From a virus (taxonomy: Duplodnaviria; Caudoviricetes): a stretch of 64,000 nucleotides of DNA. Below, in pieces: positions 10,521 through 40,250 of this stretch; the first letter of the stretch is position 1, and each line of letters opens with the position of its first letter. The notes beneath the pieces are model-generated. The model worked only from the letters and a program-made list of their open reading frames with translations. It did no database searches and had not been told where the DNA came from. Where the stretch lies: the IMG/VR virus record IMGVR_UViG_3300031992_000031, positions 69,462 to 133,461 of that record. One strand, 5' to 3'. Position numbers and translations under genes: made by a program.

Positions 10521-10899
10521 AAAATATATTACACTATTTAAGGATCTAGCGCAATCTACCGCATCTTCCGCAGAAACGGTAATGGATTATGACCGTGAGA
10601 AAAACGATCAGAAAGGGCTAGAAACAGCGCAAACTATGCGTGATGATTTTCAAGATCTAGCAAATAGAATTAATACAACTGAATATACTATGACAAAGAG
10701 TGATGCCGCAAAATTGCTAGTTGGGACAATGATTATAACCAATCAAATACAAGATCGTATTAATGGTTTAAAAAAAGCAATGACCGGATATCAAACAGAT
10801 GTAATTCCTAAATTACAAGAAATTGTAGACAATGCTAATACAGATGAAGAAGCTAATGAATTAGCAAATAAAAAATTTATAATTGAAGATAACGATTGA
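10513..10899 (+). CDS. hypothetical helical protein (128 aa)
   Basis: AAAGGAG RBS, overlaps the topoisomerase stop. Confidence 0.7.
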   Translation: MDKKYITLFKDLAQSTASSAETVMDYDREKNDQKGLETAQTMRDDFQDLANRINTTEYTMTKSDAAKLLVGTMIITNQIQDRINGLKKAMTGYQTDVIPKLQEIVDNANTDEEANELANKKFIIEDND

Positions 10900-10903
10900 A
10901 TAT

Positions 10904-10932
10904 TTGACTATTTTGAAAATTTATTGTATAAT
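10904..10932 (+). promoter_or_regulatory. sigma70-type promoter
   Basis: TTGACT, 17 bp, TATAAT. Confidence 0.75.
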
Positions 10933-10938
10933 AATAGT

Positions 10939-11021
10939 GTAAGAAGAGAAGCAGAGGAAGTCATGAGCCTCTGAGATAATGTGCCTCATCACAAGTCTCT
11001 TACGATTTTAATCAATGAGGT
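10939..11021 (+). promoter_or_regulatory. structured 5' leader able to sequester the endonuclease RBS
   Basis: GTAAGA/TCTTAC and CAGAGG/CCTCTG stems; GCCTCAT (10983-10989) is complementary to ATGAGGT (RBS, 11015-11021). Confidence 0.45.
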
Positions 11022-11029
11022 GATTAAAC

Positions 11030-11860
11030 ATGGGATATATTTATAAAATTACTAATTTAGTCAATAATAAGGCTTATGTTGGACAAACAAAATAGCCTAT
11101 TGAAATAAGGTGGGAAGCGCATGTATATGCGGCTTTCAGAGAAAATGACGATAATAGATATTATCTTCATCGTGCTATAAATAAATATGGTTTAGAAAAT
11201 TTTAAATTTGAAATAATTGAAGAAGTTCCCAATACTAAATTGGATGAAAGAGAAATTTATTGGATAGCACATTTTCACACATATAGATATGACGAAGAAG
11301 GAAATCAAGGTTATAATCTAACTCGTGGCGGTAAAGGTAACTGGAAATTTGAACCAGAAGCGCTATTGAAAGCATTTTTTAATAATAATGAACATTTAGG
11401 AAATACATGTAAAGATATTGGATGTGCAGAGCCAACTTTAATCAAGGTTTTACAAGAAAATGGATTATTTGGTAAAGGTAGTATGACTTCAGTATATCAA
11501 ATATCTTTGGTAGATGGAAGTATTATTAAGAAGTTTGATTCAGCCATAGAAGTTATGAAAACTTTTAATCGTTGTAAAACTGCAATATGTGATGCAATGA
11601 ATGGTAGACAGAAAACTGCTGCTGGATATATATGGTGTAAAGTAGAAGATTATCCTAATTTTAAACTTGAAGAACATATAGATAATAAGCAAAAGAAAGT
11701 ATTATGTGTGGAAAAGAATTTACAATTTAATATGATTAAAGATGCTGGCAAATGGGTATATGAAAATGGATATACGACTAGTAGAGAAGTAAATGCAAAT
11801 ATATGTAGAGCATGTAAAAAAGGTATAAAAGCATACGGCTTCCATTGGCAGTATGTATAA
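11030..11860 (+). CDS. free-standing GIY-YIG homing endonuclease with NUMOD1-type repeats (276 aa, one TAG=Gln)
   Basis: MGYIYKITNLVNNKAYVGQTK*PIEIRW...LHRAINKYG..NF...EREIYWI...GYNLTRGG; in-frame TAG at 11093-11095 (codon 22). The ORF track shows only the 3' part. Confidence 0.88.
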
Positions 11861-11893
11861 TAATAAAAATATTTATAAAAGAGGTAATGTAAA

Positions 11894-12517
11894 ATGACCA
11901 TAAACTATTGTGGCCTTGTAGAGTAATCTACATTGAATAACCTGTCTAATTCGGGGAAAATCTCTATGAGATAACCGCCGAGCTAAACTTCGTAAGAAGA
12001 AATGTGGAACGACTAGCTGAAAAGCGTAGCCTCAAGTGAGGCGAAAAGACAGGAACCCTACATTTTGAGGGTTGTGATATAGTCTGAACTTTATGGCGAC
12101 ATAAAGCAGTTCATAAGAGAACGAATATAGATTAACGACCTATATTGAACATTTTGTAATAGTGAACGTGTATTAAACTTTTTAAAGGAAAATTATGGCA
12201 AGGAATTTAGTAAGCAGGAAATCGCGGATGCCCTGGGCATTTCTCTATCTGCTGTAATTGGGAGCATCAATCCTCTAGAAAAGAAAGGTTATTCTCATGT
12301 AACCCGTGAAGAAGTAATTGAACTGGAGCCCGCTACGGAAACTCGTAAGGCAAAGACTAAGACCGTTAAGTATCATACTCTAACTGAAGAGGGTCTAGCT
12401 TATGATCCTATTGCTGAGGAAGCCGAAAAGATCGCCGCGAAGCAGGCAGAAAAAGAGCGTAAGGCCGCAGAAAAGGCAGCTGCGAAAGCCGCTAAGGAAG
12501 CAGAAGCAACATTTTAA
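11894..12517 (+). CDS. intron-split winged-helix protein with Ala/Lys-rich tail; join(11894..11901,12157..12517), 122 aa
   Basis: GAGGT RBS; ATG ACC AT | intron | T AAT AGT gives MTINSERVLNFLKENYGKEFSKQEIADALGISLSAVIGSINPLEKKGY...KAAEKAAAKAAKEAEATF. Exon 2 lacks its own ATG and is missing from the ORF track. Confidence 0.85.
11902..12156 (+). mobile_element. group I self-splicing intron (255 nt, no internal ORF)
   Basis: Core elements AATTCGGGGAA (P), AACCGCCGAGC (Q), GGAACGACTA (R), GATATAGTCT (S); 5' splice U.G pair in P1 (CCAU/GUGG); P10 ACUAUUG/UAAUAGU; terminal omega-G at 12156. Confidence 0.9.
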
Positions 12518-15282: not shown

Positions 15283-16878
15283 ATGACGCTATCCGATTCT
15301 TATGCTTATATGCAGGTTATCGGTTGCTTAATGTATAAACCTCTATTATTTTTGGAATATCCAGACATACAACCACAGGATTTTGATCTAAGACCTGCGA
15401 GGGTATGTCTTCTTGCTATTAAAAAATTATATGAGGCGGGCGCTACTGTATTGACCCCACTTGAAGTGGATCAAGAAATCGAAAGAAGTGGTGCCGCAGC
15501 GGCACAAGTATATAAGGCCGAAGGCGGCCTAGACTTTTTAAAAAATTCTTATGAATACGCCCAATTAGGCAACTTTGAATTACATTATAAAAGAGTAAAA
15601 AAGTATTCATTATTAAGAAGATTACAGAAAGCACATTATGATATTAGTAAATATTATATAGCAGATAAAGATGTCAAGGACCCTCAATTAGAGGTTGAAA
15701 TTATTGAGAGATTAGAAAAAGCATCATTAGAAGATATATTAAATAATGTAGAAAAAGAATATAGTGAAATTAGAAATGATTTTTTGAATGGCGGCAGAAC
15801 CAAGGGCGACCCAGCAGAAGGACTTACAACTCTAATTGAAGATTTACGTAAGTCTCCAAGTATTGGGCCAAGTCTTGAAGGAAAAATATTTAGTTCGGTA
15901 TGTAGAGGCGCGCGAGAAGGGTGCTTTTTCCTTAAAAGTGCTAGTACAAGTGCTGGTAAATCTCGTACAAGTATATTTGATGCTTGTCATATTGCATATC
16001 CAAAAAGATGGTCCCATGAAAAGAATACATTTATAGAAGAAATACAGGCAGATGGAACGCCGCGAGAGCCAAGAAAAGTATTATTCATCGTAACTGAAAT
16101 GGATAAAGAAGAACTTCAAACAATTATGTTGGCATATCTATCAGGAGTAGATGAAGATAATATTTTGACTGGAAATTATGACTTAGGAGAATTAACCAGA
16201 GTGCGCCAAGCCGCAAAGATAATTGAAGAATACAGTGGTTATTTTATAGTTGAAGAAATAAGCGATCCTAATCTTCAAAATGTCGAAGCTACGATTCGTA
16301 AGTATGCGACAGTAGATGAAGTTAAATATGTATTTTTTGATTATATTCATTCAACTGCGAGTATGATTAATCAATTTTCAAAAAATAATATCAGAGAAGA
16401 TGTTATTTTGATGATGATGGCAAACCAGCTGAAACAATTAGCAAAAGATTATGGTTTGTTTATCTTCTCAGCAACACAGGTTAATGCACTTGCAATGGGC
16501 GATGAGGAAATGAATTTTAAAGATGAAAAGAGTATCCGTGGTGCGAAAGCTATCGCTGATAAAGCAGATATGGGATATGTAATGACAAGAGTCCCAGAGA
16601 AGGGTTGGCAATCAATCGTTCCGACTTTAAAACAAGCTGCGAGAGAGGGCACAATAACAGCGGATATAATAGATAATCCTCCAACTCATGTATTGGATAT
16701 ATATAAAATGCGGCGTGGCCGCTATAAAATGATTAGAATATGGTGTAGAATCCATTTGGGCACAGGAGAAAGAAAAGATTTATTTATAACAAATGCGGTA
16801 AATCAACCGATTAGTGAGCCGATAGATATATTTTCAAGTGCGAGTGAGCGAATAATTACAATTTAGGAAGAAGGATGA
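15283..16878 (+). CDS. dnaB: replicative DNA helicase (DnaB family); ends at TAG 16866 in code 11 or TGA 16878 in code 15
   Basis: ASTSAGKSR Walker A, FIVTEM, YVFFDYIH, LKQLAKDYG..IFSATQVN, IRGAKAIADKAD. Confidence 0.88.
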
Positions 16879-25616: not shown

Positions 25617-25812
25617 TAGTATTAAAGTACAATATGAAACCTTAAATAAAGATTTAAAGCAGGCACTAAGCCGCATGGAACGCACTGATAGGGTATTTAT
25701 TATAAAAGAAGCAATGAATGATCTATAGAAAATGTGCCCGCATGATAATGGATCATTTGATTTCTCTACAACCGAATATTGCCCGTATTGTGGAAAAAAG
25801 TTTGGGAAGTGA
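25606..25812 (+). CDS. small zinc-finger protein (68 aa, 1 TAG=Gln)
   Basis: AGGAGG RBS; ...MNDL*KMCPH...YCPYCGKKF, TGA. Confidence 0.7.
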
Positions 25813-25816
25813 TATT

Positions 25817-28099
25817 ATGGAATTACAAATTAAAAAACGAACAGGAGAATTAGTTCCATTTAATAAAGAAAAAATTGAAACGGCTATTTGTAAAGCATGG
25901 CATGAAGTTTATCCCAATGAACAAGGTAAACCTTCTTATGGGCAAGAAATAGCTGACATGGTAGAAAATGTAGCAAAAGAATTAGATGAGTCTATTGGAG
26001 TTGAAGATATTCAAGAATTAGTTGAAGATTATTTAACTGATTATGATCTAAAAGTTGGTAAAGCGTATATTAAATACAGATACAAGCATGGTATTATGCG
26101 TGCGAATTCTACTGAATTTATTCGCGCTATTAGTGAGAAACTTCGCGCTTCTAATGTTCAGAATCAAAATGCTAATGTAGATGAACATTCATTTGGTGGC
26201 CGTGTTGGTGAAGCCTCAGATGAAATGATGAAGCAGTATGCTCTTGATTTTTGTATGTCTAATATGGCAAAACAGAATCATTTAAATAATGAAATTTATA
26301 TTCATGATTTGAGCGCTTATGCTGTTGGTATGCATAACTGTTTGAGTATTCCATTTGATGACTTACTTGCTAATGGATTTAATACTAGGCAAACTGATGT
26401 GCGTCCTGCTAATTCAATTAATACTGCTTTCCAGCTTGTAGCGGTTATCTTCCAACTTCAAAGCTTAATGCAGTTCGGCGGCGTGAGTGCAACTCACCTA
26501 GATTGGACTATGGTGCCTTATGTAAGAAAGAGTTATTTTAAGCATTTACAAGAAGTATGCACAATAGTACAAAATAATGATAATTGTACTTGGACTGTTG
26601 GTTCTCTTGAAAAGAAAACTCTTCCAGAGATATTTGAAATACAAACTAAGAATAAAAAGCCGGAAGATATTAGTATAAATGATTCAGAAACATATGGTTA
26701 CCTTCCAGAGTCTATATGTGATAGCGCATTAGAAATGACTAAAAAAGAACTACAACAAGCGGTTGAGGGCATGTATCATAACTTAAATACACTTCAATCT
26801 CGTAGCGGAAATCAGTTACCTTTTACATCAATTAACTATGGTACATGTACATTACCAGAAGGTCGTATGGTAACAAAGGCATTACTCGAAGGCTCAATTA
26901 AAGGTGTTGGTAAGTTCCATAAAACTCCTATTTTTCCATGCGGTATCTTCCAGTGTATGAAAGGAATCAATCGTGCGCCCGGCGATCCTAATTATGATTT
27001 ATTTAGACTAGCACTAGAATCAACCGCAAAGCGGATTTACCCTAATTATGCGAATGTTGATTGGAGCGGCAATGCCGGGTATGATGTAAATGACCCAAAG
27101 ACGTACTTCTCTACGATGGGCTGTAGAACAGCGAACGGAGCAGATATAAATGCTGAGCCCGGAGTTAATCCTCAGACAAAGGATGGTCGTGGTAATATTT
27201 GTCCTGTTACAATTATTATGCCAACACTTGCTATGCTAGCAAAACAAGACGTAGAAAACGGCTGCCAAACTCCTATTGAAGAAATTTTCTTAAATATTCT
27301 AGATAAAAAAATTCATGAAGCAAAAGATATGCTATTAGAGCGCTTTAATTGGATTTGTAGTCAAGATGCTTCTTCCGCTAAATTTATGTATGAAAATCAT
27401 ACAATGCTTGGATACCATCCAGAAGAAGGTATTCGTTCAGCGTTAAAACACGGTACGATAGTTATCGGCCAATTAGGATTGGCTGAAACACTTCAAATTC
27501 TAATTGGTAAAGACCATACAACAGAAGAGGGTATGGCGTTAGCGAAACGTATTGAATCATTATTCAAGCAACGTTGTGCTGAATTTAAGCAAGAATATAA
27601 ATTAAACTTTGGCGTTTATTATACTCCTGCAGAAAATCTTTGCTATACAGCAATGAAGAAATTCAAAGCTAAATACGGTGAAATTCCTAATGTCTCCGAC
27701 CGTGAATATTTTACAAATAGTATTCATGTCCCGGTATGGCATGAGATTTCAATCTTTGACAAGATTGATATAGAAGCACAACTTACAGGATATTCTAGCG
27801 CAGGTTGCATCACATACGTAGAAGTTCCTAGTGGTGTAAAGAATAACATAGATGCGCTTGAAATAATAGTAAATTATGCGATGGATAAGGACATACCGTA
27901 CTTCGCGCTTAATGTACCGCTAGATAGCTGTAATGACTGCGGTTATCAGGATGAAATTGGAGAAAAGTGCCCACAATGTGGAAGCACAAATATATCAAGA
28001 CTTAGACGCGTAACCGGATATTTAACCGGAAATTATAAAACTGCTTTTAATAGGGGCAAACAAGCAGAAACTGAAGAACGCGTTAAGCATATACATTAA
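25817..28099 (+). CDS. nrdD: anaerobic (class III) ribonucleotide reductase
   Basis: N-terminal ATP cone (IKKRTGELVPFNKEKI), HNCL, TMGCRT, TPAENL, CxxC..CxxC, RRVTGYL glycyl-radical loop. Start corrected to ATG 25817. Confidence 0.95.
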   Translation: MELQIKKRTGELVPFNKEKIETAICKAWHEVYPNEQGKPSYGQEIADMVENVAKELDESIGVEDIQELVEDYLTDYDLKVGKAYIKYRYKHGIMRANSTEFIRAISEKLRASNVQNQNANVDEHSFGGRVGEASDEMMKQYALDFCMSNMAKQNHLNNEIYIHDLSAYAVGMHNCLSIPFDDLLANGFNTRQTDVRPANSINTAFQLVAVIFQLQSLMQFGGVSATHLDWTMVPYVRKSYFKHLQEVCTIVQNNDNCTWTVGSLEKKTLPEIFEIQTKNKKPEDISINDSETYGYLPESICDSALEMTKKELQQAVEGMYHNLNTLQSRSGNQLPFTSINYGTCTLPEGRMVTKALLEGSIKGVGKFHKTPIFPCGIFQCMKGINRAPGDPNYDLFRLALESTAKRIYPNYANVDWSGNAGYDVNDPKTYFSTMGCRTANGADINAEPGVNPQTKDGRGNICPVTIIMPTLAMLAKQDVENGCQTPIEEIFLNILDKKIHEAKDMLLERFNWICSQDASSAKFMYENHTMLGYHPEEGIRSALKHGTIVIGQLGLAETLQILIGKDHTTEEGMALAKRIESLFKQRCAEFKQEYKLNFGVYYTPAENLCYTAMKKFKAKYGEIPNVSDREYFTNSIHVPVWHEISIFDKIDIEAQLTGYSSAGCITYVEVPSGVKNNIDALEIIVNYAMDKDIPYFALNVPLDSCNDCGYQDEIGEKCPQCGSTNISRLRRVTGYLTGNYKTAFNRGKQAETEERVKHIH

Positions 28100-28593: not shown

Positions 28594-29137
28594 ATTATGC
28601 AAAGCCTGTGTTGCTGGTATAGCAATAGCGTTGGGCGGTTGGGCCTACTTATCCGCATCTAATCCAATTGTAGGAGCAGTTATATTCGCTTGTGGATTAT
28701 TAACTGTTAGACTCTATGAACTACATTTATTTACTGGAAAAGTTCAATTTATAACAACTAAAGATGAGCCGTGGTATTATTATCCATTAATATTACTCTG
28801 TAATTTCATTGGAGTAGCAATGATGGTTTTAATTTCATATAGAGCCATACACGAGTCCGCAGCAACGATTGCTATAGCTAAAGCCGCGCAAGACCCAACC
28901 ATTTCTTTGATTAAAGGAATTGGATGCGGTATGTTAATGTCTCTTGCCACTTATAAAGAAACTCCATTATGGGTTACAGTATTGGCAGTAGCAACATTTA
29001 TTCTGGCAGGTTTCAATCACTGTATCGCTGATTTTTATTATATGCTAGCAGGAGCACATTTAAGTTGGAATTTACTTTTAACAATTTTAGGAAATATTTT
29101 TGGCGGCATTATTTTAAGTGGACGTTTAATAAAGTAA
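28583..29137 (+). CDS. formate/nitrite transporter (FNT, FocA-like)
   Basis: AGIAIALGG, FACGL, LFTG, NFIG, GIGCG, FILAGFNHCIAD, LGNIFGG are FNT motifs. Confidence 0.85.
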   Translation: MINKLCKACVAGIAIALGGWAYLSASNPIVGAVIFACGLLTVRLYELHLFTGKVQFITTKDEPWYYYPLILLCNFIGVAMMVLISYRAIHESAATIAIAKAAQDPTISLIKGIGCGMLMSLATYKETPLWVTVLAVATFILAGFNHCIADFYYMLAGAHLSWNLLLTILGNIFGGIILSGRLIK

Positions 29138-29141
29138 ATAT

Positions 29142-29170
29142 TTGACAAAATCCTAGAAATCTGTTATAAT
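29142..29170 (+). promoter_or_regulatory. sigma70-type promoter
   Basis: TTGACA, 17 bp, TGnTATAAT. Confidence 0.82.
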
Positions 29171-29198
29171 TAAGTATAAAGAAAAAAGTGGTGATTTG

Positions 29199-30233
29199 AT
29201 GATATACGCTTTAATTGGATGCTTAGTTATAATCGGATTTCTAGGATTTAAACTTTTTTAGAAATAGAAAATTGATAAAGAAGAATATTAGCTTTATCAA
29301 GATGAGTTAAAGTAGGTTAAACAAGATGTAAAAGATACTTGGGTGGAGTTTCACTTAGCATCAGATAACTTACAATCAGCTTAGAATACTTTAAGTCATA
29401 TTCAAGAAAAAACTAAATATGAGAAATGTAAACTTGAAGAATGTAAAAAAGATTTACAAGCCACTTTAGATGTTTATCAAGATTTAACAGATAATAAACT
29501 AAAAGAAATTGACGCTTCAATTGAAGAACAGCGGTTAAAACGTCAAGAAGAACTAGAACAAGCATTAGCTGATAAATAGGCTTACTACAATAAATTACTT
29601 GAGGATACTATTAATCAATGTAATTTATAGGATGAAACAATTAAAGAAGCATCTGAAACCAAATGGCGTGAAGCTATGGAACAAATTGAACAATATAATA
29701 AATCTATAGCTGATGCTAAAGAACGATTTGAAAGTATTGAACGTACTTTAAGGTAGTATGATGCTGAACAACAAGCAAAATTATTCTATACAATTCAATT
29801 GTCAGAAGAATTTCAAGAAGATATAGAATTTTTACTTACTACTGTCGCGGCAAAAGTATAGCATCCAGATATAATTAGTAAATTAGTTTGGCAAGAATAT
29901 GTTAAGCCTAATCTTGAAAATACATTTAAACGCATTGAAATAAAATCAGATCCTGGAATATATAAATTAACAAGCTTAATAAATGGAAAATGTTATGTAG
30001 GAAAAAGTGTTGATGTAAAAAAGAGAATTGCAGACCACTTTAAATCAGTCGTTGGCATCAAATCCATTGCAGATCAAGCGGTTCATCACGCAATACTTAA
30101 AGAAGGATTTTGGAACTGGCAAATTGAAATAATCACTTATTGTGATAAAGATAAATTAAACGAACTTGAAAAATATTATATAGAGTTTTTTAAAGCACAA
30201 GAATTCGGTTATAATAAAACAGGAGGCGGCTAA
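29199..30233 (+). CDS. membrane-anchored coiled-coil protein with C-terminal GIY-YIG nuclease (344 aa, 9 TAG=Gln)
   Basis: MIYALIGCLVIIGFLGF TM segment; coiled coil; PGIYKLTSLINGKCYVGKSVDVKKRIADH...LEKYYI...FGYN. Only TAG interruptions; absent from the ORF track. Confidence 0.85.
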
Positions 30234-30640: not shown

Positions 30641-30818
30641 TGTATGGCTAACTGAAAGTGAAGAAGAGGCTATGGAAATGATTGAAGATGCGAAGAATCA
30701 ATCATCTAATGGTGGCTATACGGTAACTAAATCTGGATATACTGCTAAGCCTAAGAAATCTAAAGGCGAAATTCTATATATTGAATATAAGGTTACAATT
30801 GAAAAAACCTTTGATTAA
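30612..30818 (+). CDS. small hypothetical phage protein
   Basis: GAGGAG RBS; ESEEEA...KKSKGEI motif. Confidence 0.65.
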   Translation: MARQLLKTTDVWLTESEEEAMEMIEDAKNQSSNGGYTVTKSGYTAKPKKSKGEILYIEYKVTIEKTFD

Positions 30819-30825
30819 CTGGTAG

Positions 30826-31608
30826 GTGAATTATATGAATGAATTAGAAGTTTTATTAGAAGCTATACAGAATTTAACTGATATCGAAGAGGATAAGCTC
30901 AATGATGATATGATTAAAGAGATTTTAGATAATTTGGATAATCAATTTACGCCACAAATTGTATCGCAGGCAATTAATCAAATTATTAAAAATCTTGAAG
31001 ATCAAGGTTTAGATAGAATTGGCGCAAAAGAAGCAATATCAACATTAAATGAAACATTAAAAGAATTGGTATATGGAGAAGAACAATTTACGCCTAGTAA
31101 AAAAATTCTTGTAGATGCAATTTTAGATAAACTCTTTAATATTTTTAATACGGCAGTGGAAAAATATCACTCATACGCTATTGAACTTCCAATGACACTA
31201 GATACCGGCGCGAAAGAACCAACTTATGCTCATGATACTGATGCCGCTGCTGACCTATATGCTCGTGAAGATCAAATTATTCCAGCCCACTCCTATGGAA
31301 ATATGATTAAAACTGGGGTAAAGATTCAACTACCAGAAGGCTGGTTGGCAATGATTCTTCCGCGTTCTAGTATGGGTGTAAAAACTCCATTACGTTTAAG
31401 TAATAGTGTGGGCCTAATTGATAGTGGCTATCGCGGCGAATTGGGAGTTATTTATGATAATACCTCTGATAATGATTATTCTATCACAGCCGGTGATAGA
31501 ATTGCTCAGCTACTAGTGATGCCAAGCTATCGCTTCCAGGCAAAAGTAGTAGATATTCTAACAGATTCAGACCGCGGTGAAGGCGGATTTGGTGCCTCTG
31601 GTAAATAA
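30826..31608 (+). CDS. dut: trimeric dUTPase with ~120-aa N-terminal extension
   Basis: AAADLY, PRSS, GLIDSGYRGEL, GDRIAQL, RGEGGFGASG. Confidence 0.9.
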   Translation: MNYMNELEVLLEAIQNLTDIEEDKLNDDMIKEILDNLDNQFTPQIVSQAINQIIKNLEDQGLDRIGAKEAISTLNETLKELVYGEEQFTPSKKILVDAILDKLFNIFNTAVEKYHSYAIELPMTLDTGAKEPTYAHDTDAAADLYAREDQIIPAHSYGNMIKTGVKIQLPEGWLAMILPRSSMGVKTPLRLSNSVGLIDSGYRGELGVIYDNTSDNDYSITAGDRIAQLLVMPSYRFQAKVVDILTDSDRGEGGFGASGK

Positions 31609-32360
31609 TGGGTACAATTAATGTATATACCGTAAGAAATGCTCTGGAAGCGGAAGGCTGGTCATTAGTTAGTGAAATTTATAAAAATTTAAAAACTCCA
31701 CTAGAAATGATTTGTCCTGTTGGGCATAAATAGGAATAGACTTTTGATAACTGGCGAAAACATAAAATATGTGATATATGTATGGCTGGCGATCCATATA
31801 AAGTCAAAAAAAATAAGGTTCCCAAAAAGGGAACAGATACACAGCGTATTTTAGCATTAGACGCTGCGACAAGTATAACTGGATATTCAATATATGATGA
31901 TAAGGTGCTAGTTGGATATGGAACATTTAAAACTAATTCCTCGCTATCGGCAACTGAGCGCATTAATCAAGTTAAAAATTGGTTAAAAGCTGCTTTAAAT
32001 GAATGGCAGCCAGATTTTGTAGGAATTGAGAATATTTAGTTATAGAAATACGGCGCGAAAGCGACTGATGTTTAGGTTAAAACCTTTTAGACACTAGCAA
32101 ATTTACAGGGTGTCTTATTAGATATAATATTTGAGGCTTGTATAGACCACGATTTGGTTTATCCTAGTGAATGGCGTTCGTACTGCGGCATAAATGACGG
32201 TGATACGCATCGTGATGCTAAAAAGAAACAGGCGCAGGCAAAAGTAAAAATCTGGTATAATATGGACTGTACAGAAGATGAATCTGATGCTATCTGTATT
32301 GGAAAGTTCTTCTGTGGAAAATTAAAATCCAATAAGATAAAATGGGGTGAAGATATATGA
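31608..32360 (+). CDS. RuvC-like Holliday junction resolvase with N-terminal Zn module (250 aa, 6 TAG=Gln)
   Basis: CPVGH...CDIC; ILALDAATSITGYS, GIENI*L*, TF*TLANLQGVL, PSEWR, DESDAICIG. ORF fragments 31782 and 32154 are in one frame. Confidence 0.85.
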
Positions 32361-38121: not shown

Positions 38122-40242
38122 TTATAAATACATATTTCTGTATAAAATCTATACATTCTAAATAGAAAATAAAAAATTATGATATATTCTATGTGAATAT
38201 GTTCTACCTTCTTCAGTATTCATCCAATGTAAGAATCGGCCATTCTTGTTCGGATAATTTCGTTCTCGTATGAAAATATTATTAGATAATAGCATATCAC
38301 CAGCATCTTCTTCCTCAACATGTAGAAGCTAACTACTTCTATGAATATCTCCAGTTACCCTAAATATAGTTGGAATTTCTTCTTTGTTTTGAATTTTACT
38401 ATCAACATATTTACAGAAAGCTTTTACCGCTTGAGTATAAGTAGCTGAATCTCCCGCGGTGGGAACAATATTTTGATGAGTTGAAGAGCTGATACAATAA
38501 TTACTCCATCCCCAAGTAACTAAATTTTCATATCTCTATTCATCAGTTAAGTTAGGGTCCTCTGACTAAATTGTATTTATTTTATTTATCGCATTTTCTT
38601 CATATACAATATCTAATAAACTAATAGTATTAATTGGTTTTCGACAATTATATGTTACAAATGCCTCACCTGTTTTACTATTAAAGACGAAATGGAAAGG
38701 AGTATATTCATCTTCATCATTTAACCAAAAACTCTTCATACGATTCTAAATATCTTTATAAATAACCTAAGAAGATTTACCAGTAGCATCTAATAAAGCA
38801 TTAACCCAAGCACGCACAGCCGGGTGTTTAACTTTTTCAATAATCATTTCTTTTAAATCTGGAATTGACATTGTTGAAAAATAATGTGTTAATAATATAT
38901 TTAATGCTTTATTATAACTAGCAATGATATTAGGCGCGGTAAGTCTAAGTTCCTATGTTTTAACTGATTCAATAAAAATAGAATTATAAGGGTTATTCTG
39001 ATTATCAAACTCATTATTAATACTATAAAAATATCCAGCATCATCAAATGCTGGCTATAAATCAAATGATATAATTGTCGGTGCGGGAGCTGTTCCAGCA
39101 TAAAAGAAATATCCAGCATTACTCGCGCCGGCCGGTAATTCTAGAATACCATTTCCATTTGCGTCCACAATTGCGCCAGCAATCTTACCGATATATCGTC
39201 CAGGAAGACATTCAAGGCTAGTAGGAACAAAATCACTATCTTTGTCTAAAAATAACTATTCATTATCTTCTGACTAAATACTGCGCCAATCCTCTGCTAC
39301 TAAAGTCGTTTGAGAACGCTAGTTAAAACCTTTCTCATTTAATACATTATTTACCCACACTCCATCCAATGTTAAGGTGCCATCAATACGCGCGCCCTCA
39401 CCAGTAGGCACTCCATCTGTCCACGCAATTGAATTTTCTGGAATAGACCAAATTAATGATTCAACATTTCCTTCAACATTCGCAAAAGCGCCATTACCTA
39501 ATAACATATTATTTTCAATCATACTACCAAGAGGAATACCATCTTCATATAAAATTTTTAACGCATCCTTAGAAGCAAAAATGCTAACTTCAGCACCATT
39601 TGCGTCTGTCCAATAATCAATATAACGATTACCAGACTTTTTACCCAATATATTATTTATGGCATACCAATGTGGGTCATCTGATATTAATTCTAATATA
39701 ATCTCACCTTTATATAAAGTAGTGCTGGTTTTATATACATCGCCGGAAATATTAATATCTGCCTCTGATTCAAAAGGTAATAAAGATAAAGCCGGTGGTT
39801 TAGATACTCGCGCCATTATAGCGCGGTTCGGATGTTCTGATAACACTAGTTCACGACTTACCCCAGCTGAGAACCAATTTAAAAAATTATCTAATTTGCG
39901 CTAATCAATACCATCAGTAGCTAAATTAAAAGTAATTGTGTTATTAGAATAATGAGTGTTCCAATAAAATTGTCCATCTAAATTATCATATGTACTAACA
40001 TTATCATTAAAACCAGCATATCCATCTCTTGATAATCTATTACTAGTAATTGTAGCAATTAAATCAAAATCTTCAATATGCTTATTTCCATATGTAAAGC
40101 TAATAAAAGAACGGTTCATATATGGCAAACGTTTTACACCATCATGAGTAGCCTAATATACCTGTCCATATCGAACTGTATTAATAGGGGTATCGGTTAA
40201 ACCGATACCCCCAATTTGTCCATAATCTCTATAATTTTCCAT
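38122..40242 (-). CDS. distal tail protein (Dit)-like with insertions (706 aa, TAG=Gln)
   Basis: SFTYGNKHIEDFDLI, DGQFYW..HY, YAGTAPAPTI; directly follows the tape measure; fragments 39901 and 39319 are in frame. Confidence 0.75.
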
Positions 40243-40250
40243 AACTCATT

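Follow-up and report, generated by a model that had tools for sequence, protein, structure and literature searches.

Whether a free-standing homing endonuclease gene and the group I intron lying beside it form a cooperating pair is the question raised by one locus (positions 10903-12517) in a 64,000-nucleotide stretch of DNA from a Caudoviricetes virus. The window, meaning this whole stretch, covers bases 69462-133461 of the 133-kb IMG/VR record IMGVR_UViG_3300031992_000031 and has a G+C content of 34%; all features of the locus lie on the plus strand. A first-pass annotation made from the sequence alone described a promoter, a structured leader, a GIY-YIG gene with a TAG at codon 22 and, 33 nt further on, a gene split by an intron without an open reading frame (ORF), all of which are present. 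It also proposed that nuclease and intron are partners in collaborative homing and that the nuclease is locked twice, by its leader and by its TAG. Comparison with related loci points, with a probability of roughly 0.7, to two independent selfish elements 41 bases apart in the replication module, and not to a cooperating pair.

The ORF-less intron (11902-12156, 255 nt, with a terminal G at 12156) interrupts the gene of a winged-helix DNA-binding protein after eight coding bases, in codon 3. In a local 1.7-kb scan it matched Rfam model RF00028 at 77.4 bits (gathering score 50, E = 1.7e-19) over model positions 1-253, including the full core, and a genome search agreed; scans of the whole 64-kb window under gathering or E-value thresholds missed this 77-bit intron, so that the speed filters applied in scans of this size can hide introns. 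Exon 1 (ATGACCAT, 11894-11901, start codon at 11894-11896) was placed from the sequence, from the P1 pairing, in which its terminal U forms a U.G pair at the splice site in the Rfam alignment, and from the related locus L011, in which the predicted ligated junction ATGACCAT/TAATAGTG is present uninterrupted. Because L011 joins ATGACCAT directly to TAATAGTGAACG, the intron boundaries are fixed at 11902-12156, a small correction to the earlier coordinates, of which the 33-nt spacer between the nuclease stop codon and the start of the split gene (11861-11893) stands. This spacer contains the ribosome-binding site (RBS) AGAGG of the winged-helix gene (11879-11883), and the distance from the nuclease stop codon to the intron is 41 nt. 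Exon 2 (12157-12517; Pfam HTH_24, 2e-5) encodes the winged-helix domain and a Lys/Ala-rich tail, has no in-frame start codon before 12402, and would give a spliced product of 122 aa. In phage BLAST the intron resembles Twort-type and other phage introns at the level of the core only. Two metagenome introns (L105:1839-3211 and L107) are 83-96% identical to its 3' part (P7-P9) over 48-99 nt, and each adjoins a same-strand GIY-YIG ORF that is 28-33% identical to the window nuclease.

Related loci were collected by querying IMG/VR with the nuclease and, separately, with the conserved protein of 300 aa encoded downstream, followed by BLAST of parts of the window; the resulting co-occurrence sample comprised 45 loci sharing the gene order GyrA, orf128, nuclease where present, winged-helix gene, orf300 and AAA_24. 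The nuclease occupies the identical site between orf128 and the winged-helix gene on 12 contigs (L003 and L005 being identical in sequence) and is absent from about 33. The intron is absent from all 10 nuclease-bearing relatives whose contig extends into the downstream gene, from the approximately 33 nuclease-free relatives, and thus from every locus in which the contig includes the winged-helix start (42-43 related loci), making it a singleton among the loci sampled. The gap between the nuclease and the part matching exon 2 is about 45-75 nt in the 10 loci judged, compared with 297 nt in the window. In L011 the 140 nuclease residues present are 99% identical to those of the window, and the spacer, exon 1 and the initial 25 nt of exon 2 match without a difference, with no intron between the exons. 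Three IMG/VR pattern scans and one metagenome pattern scan returned no close second copy of the intron, and five related genomes (50-100% complete) contained no RF00028 match above cut-off. As far as these data allow, nuclease and intron are distributed independently in relatives, and the intron appears not to have spread with the nuclease.

Collaborative homing, known from F-CphI and the psbA intron of cyanophage S-PM2 and from T7-like phages, is defined by a nuclease whose target is the insertion site of the intron (PMC3984707). Applied strictly to this locus, it would require the nuclease to have the site of intron insertion as its target, the intron to interrupt that site and thereby shield the genome and both to spread as a unit, as the first-pass annotation supposed in placing the cut near ATGACCAT/TAATAGT. 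The precedents and the 41-nt separation favour such an arrangement, as does the end of the identity tract shared with L011 about 26 nt past the intron site, which makes a nearby break conceivable, but the uninterrupted gene in 10 of 10 judged nuclease-bearing relatives indirectly contradicts the convergence of target and insertion site that defines collaborative pairs. A nuclease that cut the junction would also cut an L011-type genome, in which the 99% identical enzyme adjoins the exact uninterrupted junction and would cleave its own DNA, and the intron would therefore not be the nuclease's immunity device. The lack of a second copy in the IMG/VR, metagenome and related-genome scans, together with the position of the intron in codon 3, within a poorly conserved stretch and unlike the conserved sites typical of collaborative pairs, also counts against strict collaborative homing, which is very improbable here. 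A free-standing nuclease adjoining an ORF-less intron is thus insufficient grounds for inferring collaborative homing, which allele comparison across metagenomes can test directly.

The nuclease cassette is more conserved than its surroundings. Protein identity to the window nuclease is 55-99% in L002-L011 and 35-37% in L089 and L092, and the leader DNA is 88-99% identical among alleles, compared with 49-74% for the protein of the adjoining orf128. Sliding identity delimits a high-similarity block that begins near 10880 and reaches the winged-helix start, with more diverged flanks. L011 matches the window at 98-100% across the nuclease, the spacer and the initial 25 nt of exon 2, beyond which identity falls to 68-90%. 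Conservation of a cassette beyond its flanks is the signature expected of homing into nuclease-free genomes. Cassette conservation of this kind, with identity boundaries tens of bases into the downstream gene, and the close linkage of nuclease and intron would also suit a looser trans homing, in which the nuclease cuts nuclease-free genomes nearby and the intron is co-converted, no immunity role being needed for it. A precedent is T4 MobE, which mobilises the nrdB intron by trans homing (PMC2790892, PMC2988022). Since the intron occurs in no other nuclease-bearing genome of the sample, the closest included, there is no detectable co-transfer, and this scenario is a tentative possibility; it is the only form of joint homing still plausible for the pair, and it is compatible with the two elements being independent. 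At the same site, L089 and L092 (L092:1640-2640) carry a different GIY-YIG gene (248 aa, 35-37% identical) with other C-terminal HTH repeats and the same kind of leader, in which an upstream complement faces the Shine-Dalgarno sequence (an anti-SD leader); in L092 two promoter copies flank this gene, and the -35 box of the second contains the TGA stop of the gene.

The transcription signal upstream of the cassette is a sigma-70-type promoter (TTTGACT-N17-TATAAT, 10903-10932) matching the consensus at 11 of 12 positions, of which type the plus strand of the window contains six sites compared with 0.5 expected by chance. In the nuclease-free relatives L064-L080 the same promoter drives the winged-helix gene through that gene's own 60-150-nt leader. 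Because these relatives have it directly upstream of the winged-helix gene, the promoter is resident, and not private to the nuclease. The operon that it precedes continues downstream of the cassette with the winged-helix protein, the 300-aa protein and the AAA_24 ATPase. Seven nuclease-free loci (L065, L066, L074, L075, L077, L078 and L080) share a structured 5' untranslated region before the winged-helix gene, composed of a 5' stem strand, a GCCCGUGUGCGGG-type hairpin and then GAUAAAGUAAUG; this element resembles the first half of the nuclease leader and has no Rfam match.

The leader of the nuclease gene (10939-11029) comprises an outer stem (10939-10947/10996-11003), a hairpin (10952-10957/10968-10973) and a helix of 7 bp (10983-10989/11015-11021) in which the anti-SD GCCTCAT is complementary to ATGAGGT, overlapping the Shine-Dalgarno sequence GAGGTG at 11017-11022. 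Leaders of 11 nuclease alleles were aligned and the three helices scored against 500 shuffles. Jointly, 92.6% of cells are paired and nine pairs show double changes, a number matched in 2 of 500 shuffles, and pairing drops to 28-63% when the partners are slid by one to three columns. The anti-SD helix is paired in 96% of cells, with compensatory changes in five of its seven pairs, and occurs in four states (CCTCAT/ATGAGG, CCTTAT/ATAAGG, CTCCAC/GTGGAG and CTCCCA/TGGGAG), the last two maintaining the pairing by different sequences in L089 and L092, at 35-37% protein identity. This covariation bears out the pairing of GCCTCAT with the RBS that was suggested from the window alone, and supports the leader as a device that would sequester the nuclease RBS. 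The lock is probably a pseudoknot, because the anti-SD lies within the domain closed by the terminal stem, for which reason ordinary folding ignores the pairing. An alternative local hairpin (11008-11014/11021-11027) with the Shine-Dalgarno sequence in its loop shows compensatory change in two of seven pairs, and in pseudoknot-free folding this exposing hairpin lies within 1.6 kcal/mol of the locked fold. A three-codon mini-ORF in the leader hairpin (ATG AGC CTC TGA) was dropped as a candidate element, being conserved in neither L089 nor L092.

Sequestration of this type is known from segB of T4, mobE of Aeh1 and the intron-encoded I-TevI, -II and -III (PMC2988022). The nuclease gene of the window shares with these T4-type genes an intergenic position in a polycistronic early or middle transcript, a Shine-Dalgarno sequence about 8 nt upstream of the AUG that is paired with an upstream complement, and presence or absence that varies among related phages. 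It differs in that the anti-SD is placed inside a 5'-terminal stem-loop domain, giving a pseudoknot where the T4-type lock is a simple hairpin, in that a late promoter able to free the RBS was looked for and not found, and in that the phage group (about 180 kb, Pol III alpha, TAG-recoded) is unrelated to T4.

The nuclease gene itself (11030-11860, 276 codons) is free-standing and encodes a homing endonuclease of the GIY-YIG family whose C-terminal part has two NUMOD-like repeats. The Pfam GIY-YIG family PF01541 matched at E = 5e-8 (33.6 bits against a cut-off of 22.6), and PHROG homing endonuclease families match the whole length, PHROG 314 at 3.8e-30. The GIY-YIG part of the earlier GIY-YIG/NUMOD1 assignment is therefore above cut-off, but the window protein has only a sub-threshold match to another NUMOD family, PF22083 (E = 0.029); PF07453 (NUMOD1) occurs in the homologues P0005, P0019, P0025, P0033 and P0043, and PF22083 in P0007, P0037 and P0044. 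Compared with the I-TevI catalytic domain (PDB 1MK0, 1LN0), the N-terminal 85 residues or so align and the GIY, YVG, Arg27, His31 and Glu75 equivalents are kept in the 1MK0 alignment, although the E-value is only 2e-7, residue 22 is an insertion relative to I-TevI, and the C-terminal DNA-binding part is unlike that of I-TevI, having the two NUMOD-like repeats and no zinc finger or HTH of the I-TevI kind detected.

The lone internal stop of this frame is the TAG at 11093-11095. Codon 22 lies after the YVG motif and before the catalytic Arg, in a variable loop, and is aligned to a gap in I-TevI; residue 22 is Q or N in 44 standard-code homologues, and CAG at the same codon in relatives also supports reading the TAG as Gln. 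It might instead mark a decaying pseudogene, or the true start might lie downstream, since under the standard code the frame ends at codon 22 and the next possible start, a TTG at 11240, would give a 206-aa product. That product would lose the GIY...YVG...Arg...His part of the active site, and the full frame contains no further stop or frameshift, retains its catalytic residues and stands in a genome that reads TAG as sense. Among six alleles, dN/dS is 0.18-0.23 (about 0.19) for every pair except the near-identical L003/L004, including pairs in which both alleles carry the TAG, and these alleles are working genes under purifying selection; decay is next to excluded by these values, and a downstream start is no more credible.

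Reassignment of TAG is apparent across the window, in which reading TAG as sense raises the cover of long ORFs to 95%, from 62% in the standard code. The phage group has genomes of about 180 kb, with complete relatives of 181-183 kb that have terminal repeats. In-frame TAGs are dense in a minus-strand block at 32782-61060, where one frame of 5,399 codons holds about 170, and are absent from the plus-strand replication block that encodes GyrA, the AAA_24 ATPase, a DnaB-like helicase, RecJ, Pol III alpha and NrdD. Expressed as a share of TAG, CAA and CAG codons together, TAG accounts for 0 of 247 in 24 early plus-strand ORFs (1258-24528), 270 of 501 in seven late ORFs and 1 of 9 in the window nuclease gene. 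Late-gene TAG columns compared with five related genomes contain TAG 42 times, CAA 27 times and CAG four times, with every other codon below 10, and TAG in late genes therefore means Gln. Relatives of the late gene at 38122-40245, sought for decoding TAG, were not found, and the related genomes were used in their place; Pfam returned no family for eight late proteins. A tRNA(CUA), the only one in the 133-kb record, lies outside the window and upstream of its start (G000:C1:23445-23532). The phage thus shows TAG as sense in late genes, avoidance of TAG in early neighbours and an encoded suppressor tRNA, as a delay of expression by stop-codon recoding would require. This tRNA measures 88 nt and has a Ser/Leu-like shape, its variable arm being long and its D stem 3 bp in length, although the codon alignments give Gln.

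TAG use varies by gene rather than by strand. On the plus strand, a RuvC-like resolvase (31605-32360) has six TAGs, and its neighbours nrdD (25718-28099) and the frame of the dUTPase gene (30727-31608) have none and one, respectively. At 29133-30233, a frame that begins beside another copy of the early promoter (29141-29170) holds 10 in-frame TAGs and has a second GIY-YIG domain at its C-terminal end. The early DnaB-like gene (15283-16878) ends in a TAG stop, and in the recoded state would gain four codons before a TAA/TGA stop at 16876-16878.

Because the standard code stops at codon 22, the full-length nuclease would depend on the TAG-reading state of the phage, and this much of the proposed TAG lock holds. 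Conservation of the TAG, which a purpose-built lock would lead one to expect, was not found: TAG stands at codon 22 in the window, L003, L004, L005 and L007 and CAG in L002, L006, L008, L009 and L010, and the codon flips between otherwise identical N-termini, residues 1-55 of the window and L002 being identical save for this codon and L003 and L008 being similarly close. The number of TAGs per nuclease allele ranges from 0 to 7. In L007 a second TAG replaces a Gln that five others carry, and L010 has seven TAGs, one of them at the Gln of a GQT motif invariant in 43 homologues, giving a TAG share (7 of 13) equal to that of late genes next to five neighbouring genes with none. Full-length alleles free of TAG occur on at least four contigs (L002, L006, L089 and L092), and about 40 full-length TAG-free homologues are found in public data.

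A selected double lock, in which selection retains TAG as an independent second timer in addition to RBS sequestration, could draw on the nuclease being alone in having an internal TAG among the ORFs of a 24-kb stretch of early genes, and on the 11 TAGs among 80 TAG, CAA and CAG codons in same-site nucleases across relatives, compared with none in the flanking genes of the relatives with a window-like nuclease (L002-L011). Relaxed avoidance fits this pattern equally well, and the TAG-free alleles, the TAG/CAG exchange at codon 22 and the near absence of TAG from GIY-YIG genes at other sites in these phages (1 of 70) all count against selection; a comparison across the endonuclease family found no preferential keeping of the recoded stop. 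A selected double lock is thus rather unlikely, and the codon-22 TAG is better read as a tolerated by-product of late expression, the TAG not being counter-selected and drifting in and out because the nuclease would not be needed before the suppressor is active.

The same argument for a timing role has been made elsewhere, and the supposition that such recoding had not been described for homing endonucleases does not hold, since in-frame recoded stops have been proposed to delay a homing endonuclease in Agate phages (Borges et al., bioRxiv 10.1101/2021.08.26.457843). Both cases involve a homing endonuclease with in-frame recoded stops among standard-code early genes, and in both its synthesis should be blocked until the code switch. 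The window differs in the reassignment (TAG to Gln, compared with TGA to Trp in Agate), in the free-standing rather than intron-encoded nuclease, and in having a single TAG that is polymorphic with CAG among alleles and is not preferred across the family. The Agate-phage study was reportedly published later in Nat Microbiol (2022).

Taken as two independent elements, the locus would have been assembled as follows. The first, a cassette of leader and GIY-YIG gene, would have been inserted downstream of the resident promoter, ahead of the operon's first gene. Carried on an early or middle polycistronic mRNA, its nuclease would for that reason be held down in translation by the leader pseudoknot, the anti-SD pairing with the Shine-Dalgarno sequence as in the T4 seg, mob and I-Tev genes, and full-length enzyme would be made only after the phage tRNA(CUA) became active; not being needed early, the gene would be free to drift between CAG and TAG. 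The second element, the 255-nt intron, would be a separate arrival or survivor, seen only in the window genome and presumably splicing from codon 3. It may be carried with the nuclease by co-conversion during homing (trans homing), and would not be required to protect the genome from the nuclease. Each of these mechanisms is known: the locus combines an RBS-sequestered free-standing GIY-YIG gene, an endonuclease with amber recoding and a phage group I intron that lacks an ORF.

Several observations weigh against this account. The short contigs L004, L010 and L011 are possibly RNA-derived, in which case their intronless state would be that of a spliced transcript, and the conclusion would then rest on L002, L003, L005, L006 and L007 (contigs of 4-38 kb) with L089 and L092. 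The fall in identity between the window and L011 just past the intron site is compatible with a nuclease cut nearby. The minimum folding energy of the leader is no better than that of shuffled sequences (z = -0.33), leaving covariation as the sole support for its structure, and inspection by eye revealed neither a recognisable late promoter in the interval from the anti-SD to the Shine-Dalgarno sequence nor a usable shared late-promoter motif upstream of 12 late genes. The long variable arm of the sole tRNA(CUA) found is unusual in a Gln acceptor; because the record is only about 75% complete, a second suppressor tRNA may lie outside the known sequence.

The window may alternatively show the first step of a collaborative pair, a reading that is quite improbable. 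The nuclease would cut genomes that lack it within a few tens of bases of the winged-helix start, and the intron, newly landed there, would spread only by those breaks; the pseudoknot and the suppressor-dependent TAG would together gate the nuclease, so that breaks came only when many genome copies were available for repair.

The most useful new point offered by the locus is a contrast within one gene family, in which an RNA structure is kept by covariation and a recoded stop is not kept. This contrast argues that the RNA structure is the selected control and the TAG a permitted by-product of late expression, and it provides a natural example for the study of how selfish nucleases are silenced in code-switching phages.

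Further interruptions occur in the same operon of two relatives, in which an insert of 1.0-1.25 kb (L091:5525-6574 and L093:3224-4473) breaks the AAA_24 ATPase gene, after about codon 30 in L091 and about codon 95 in L093. The insert of L091 contains a TAG-free LAGLIDADG ORF of 279 aa and is not recognised by the Rfam group I model.

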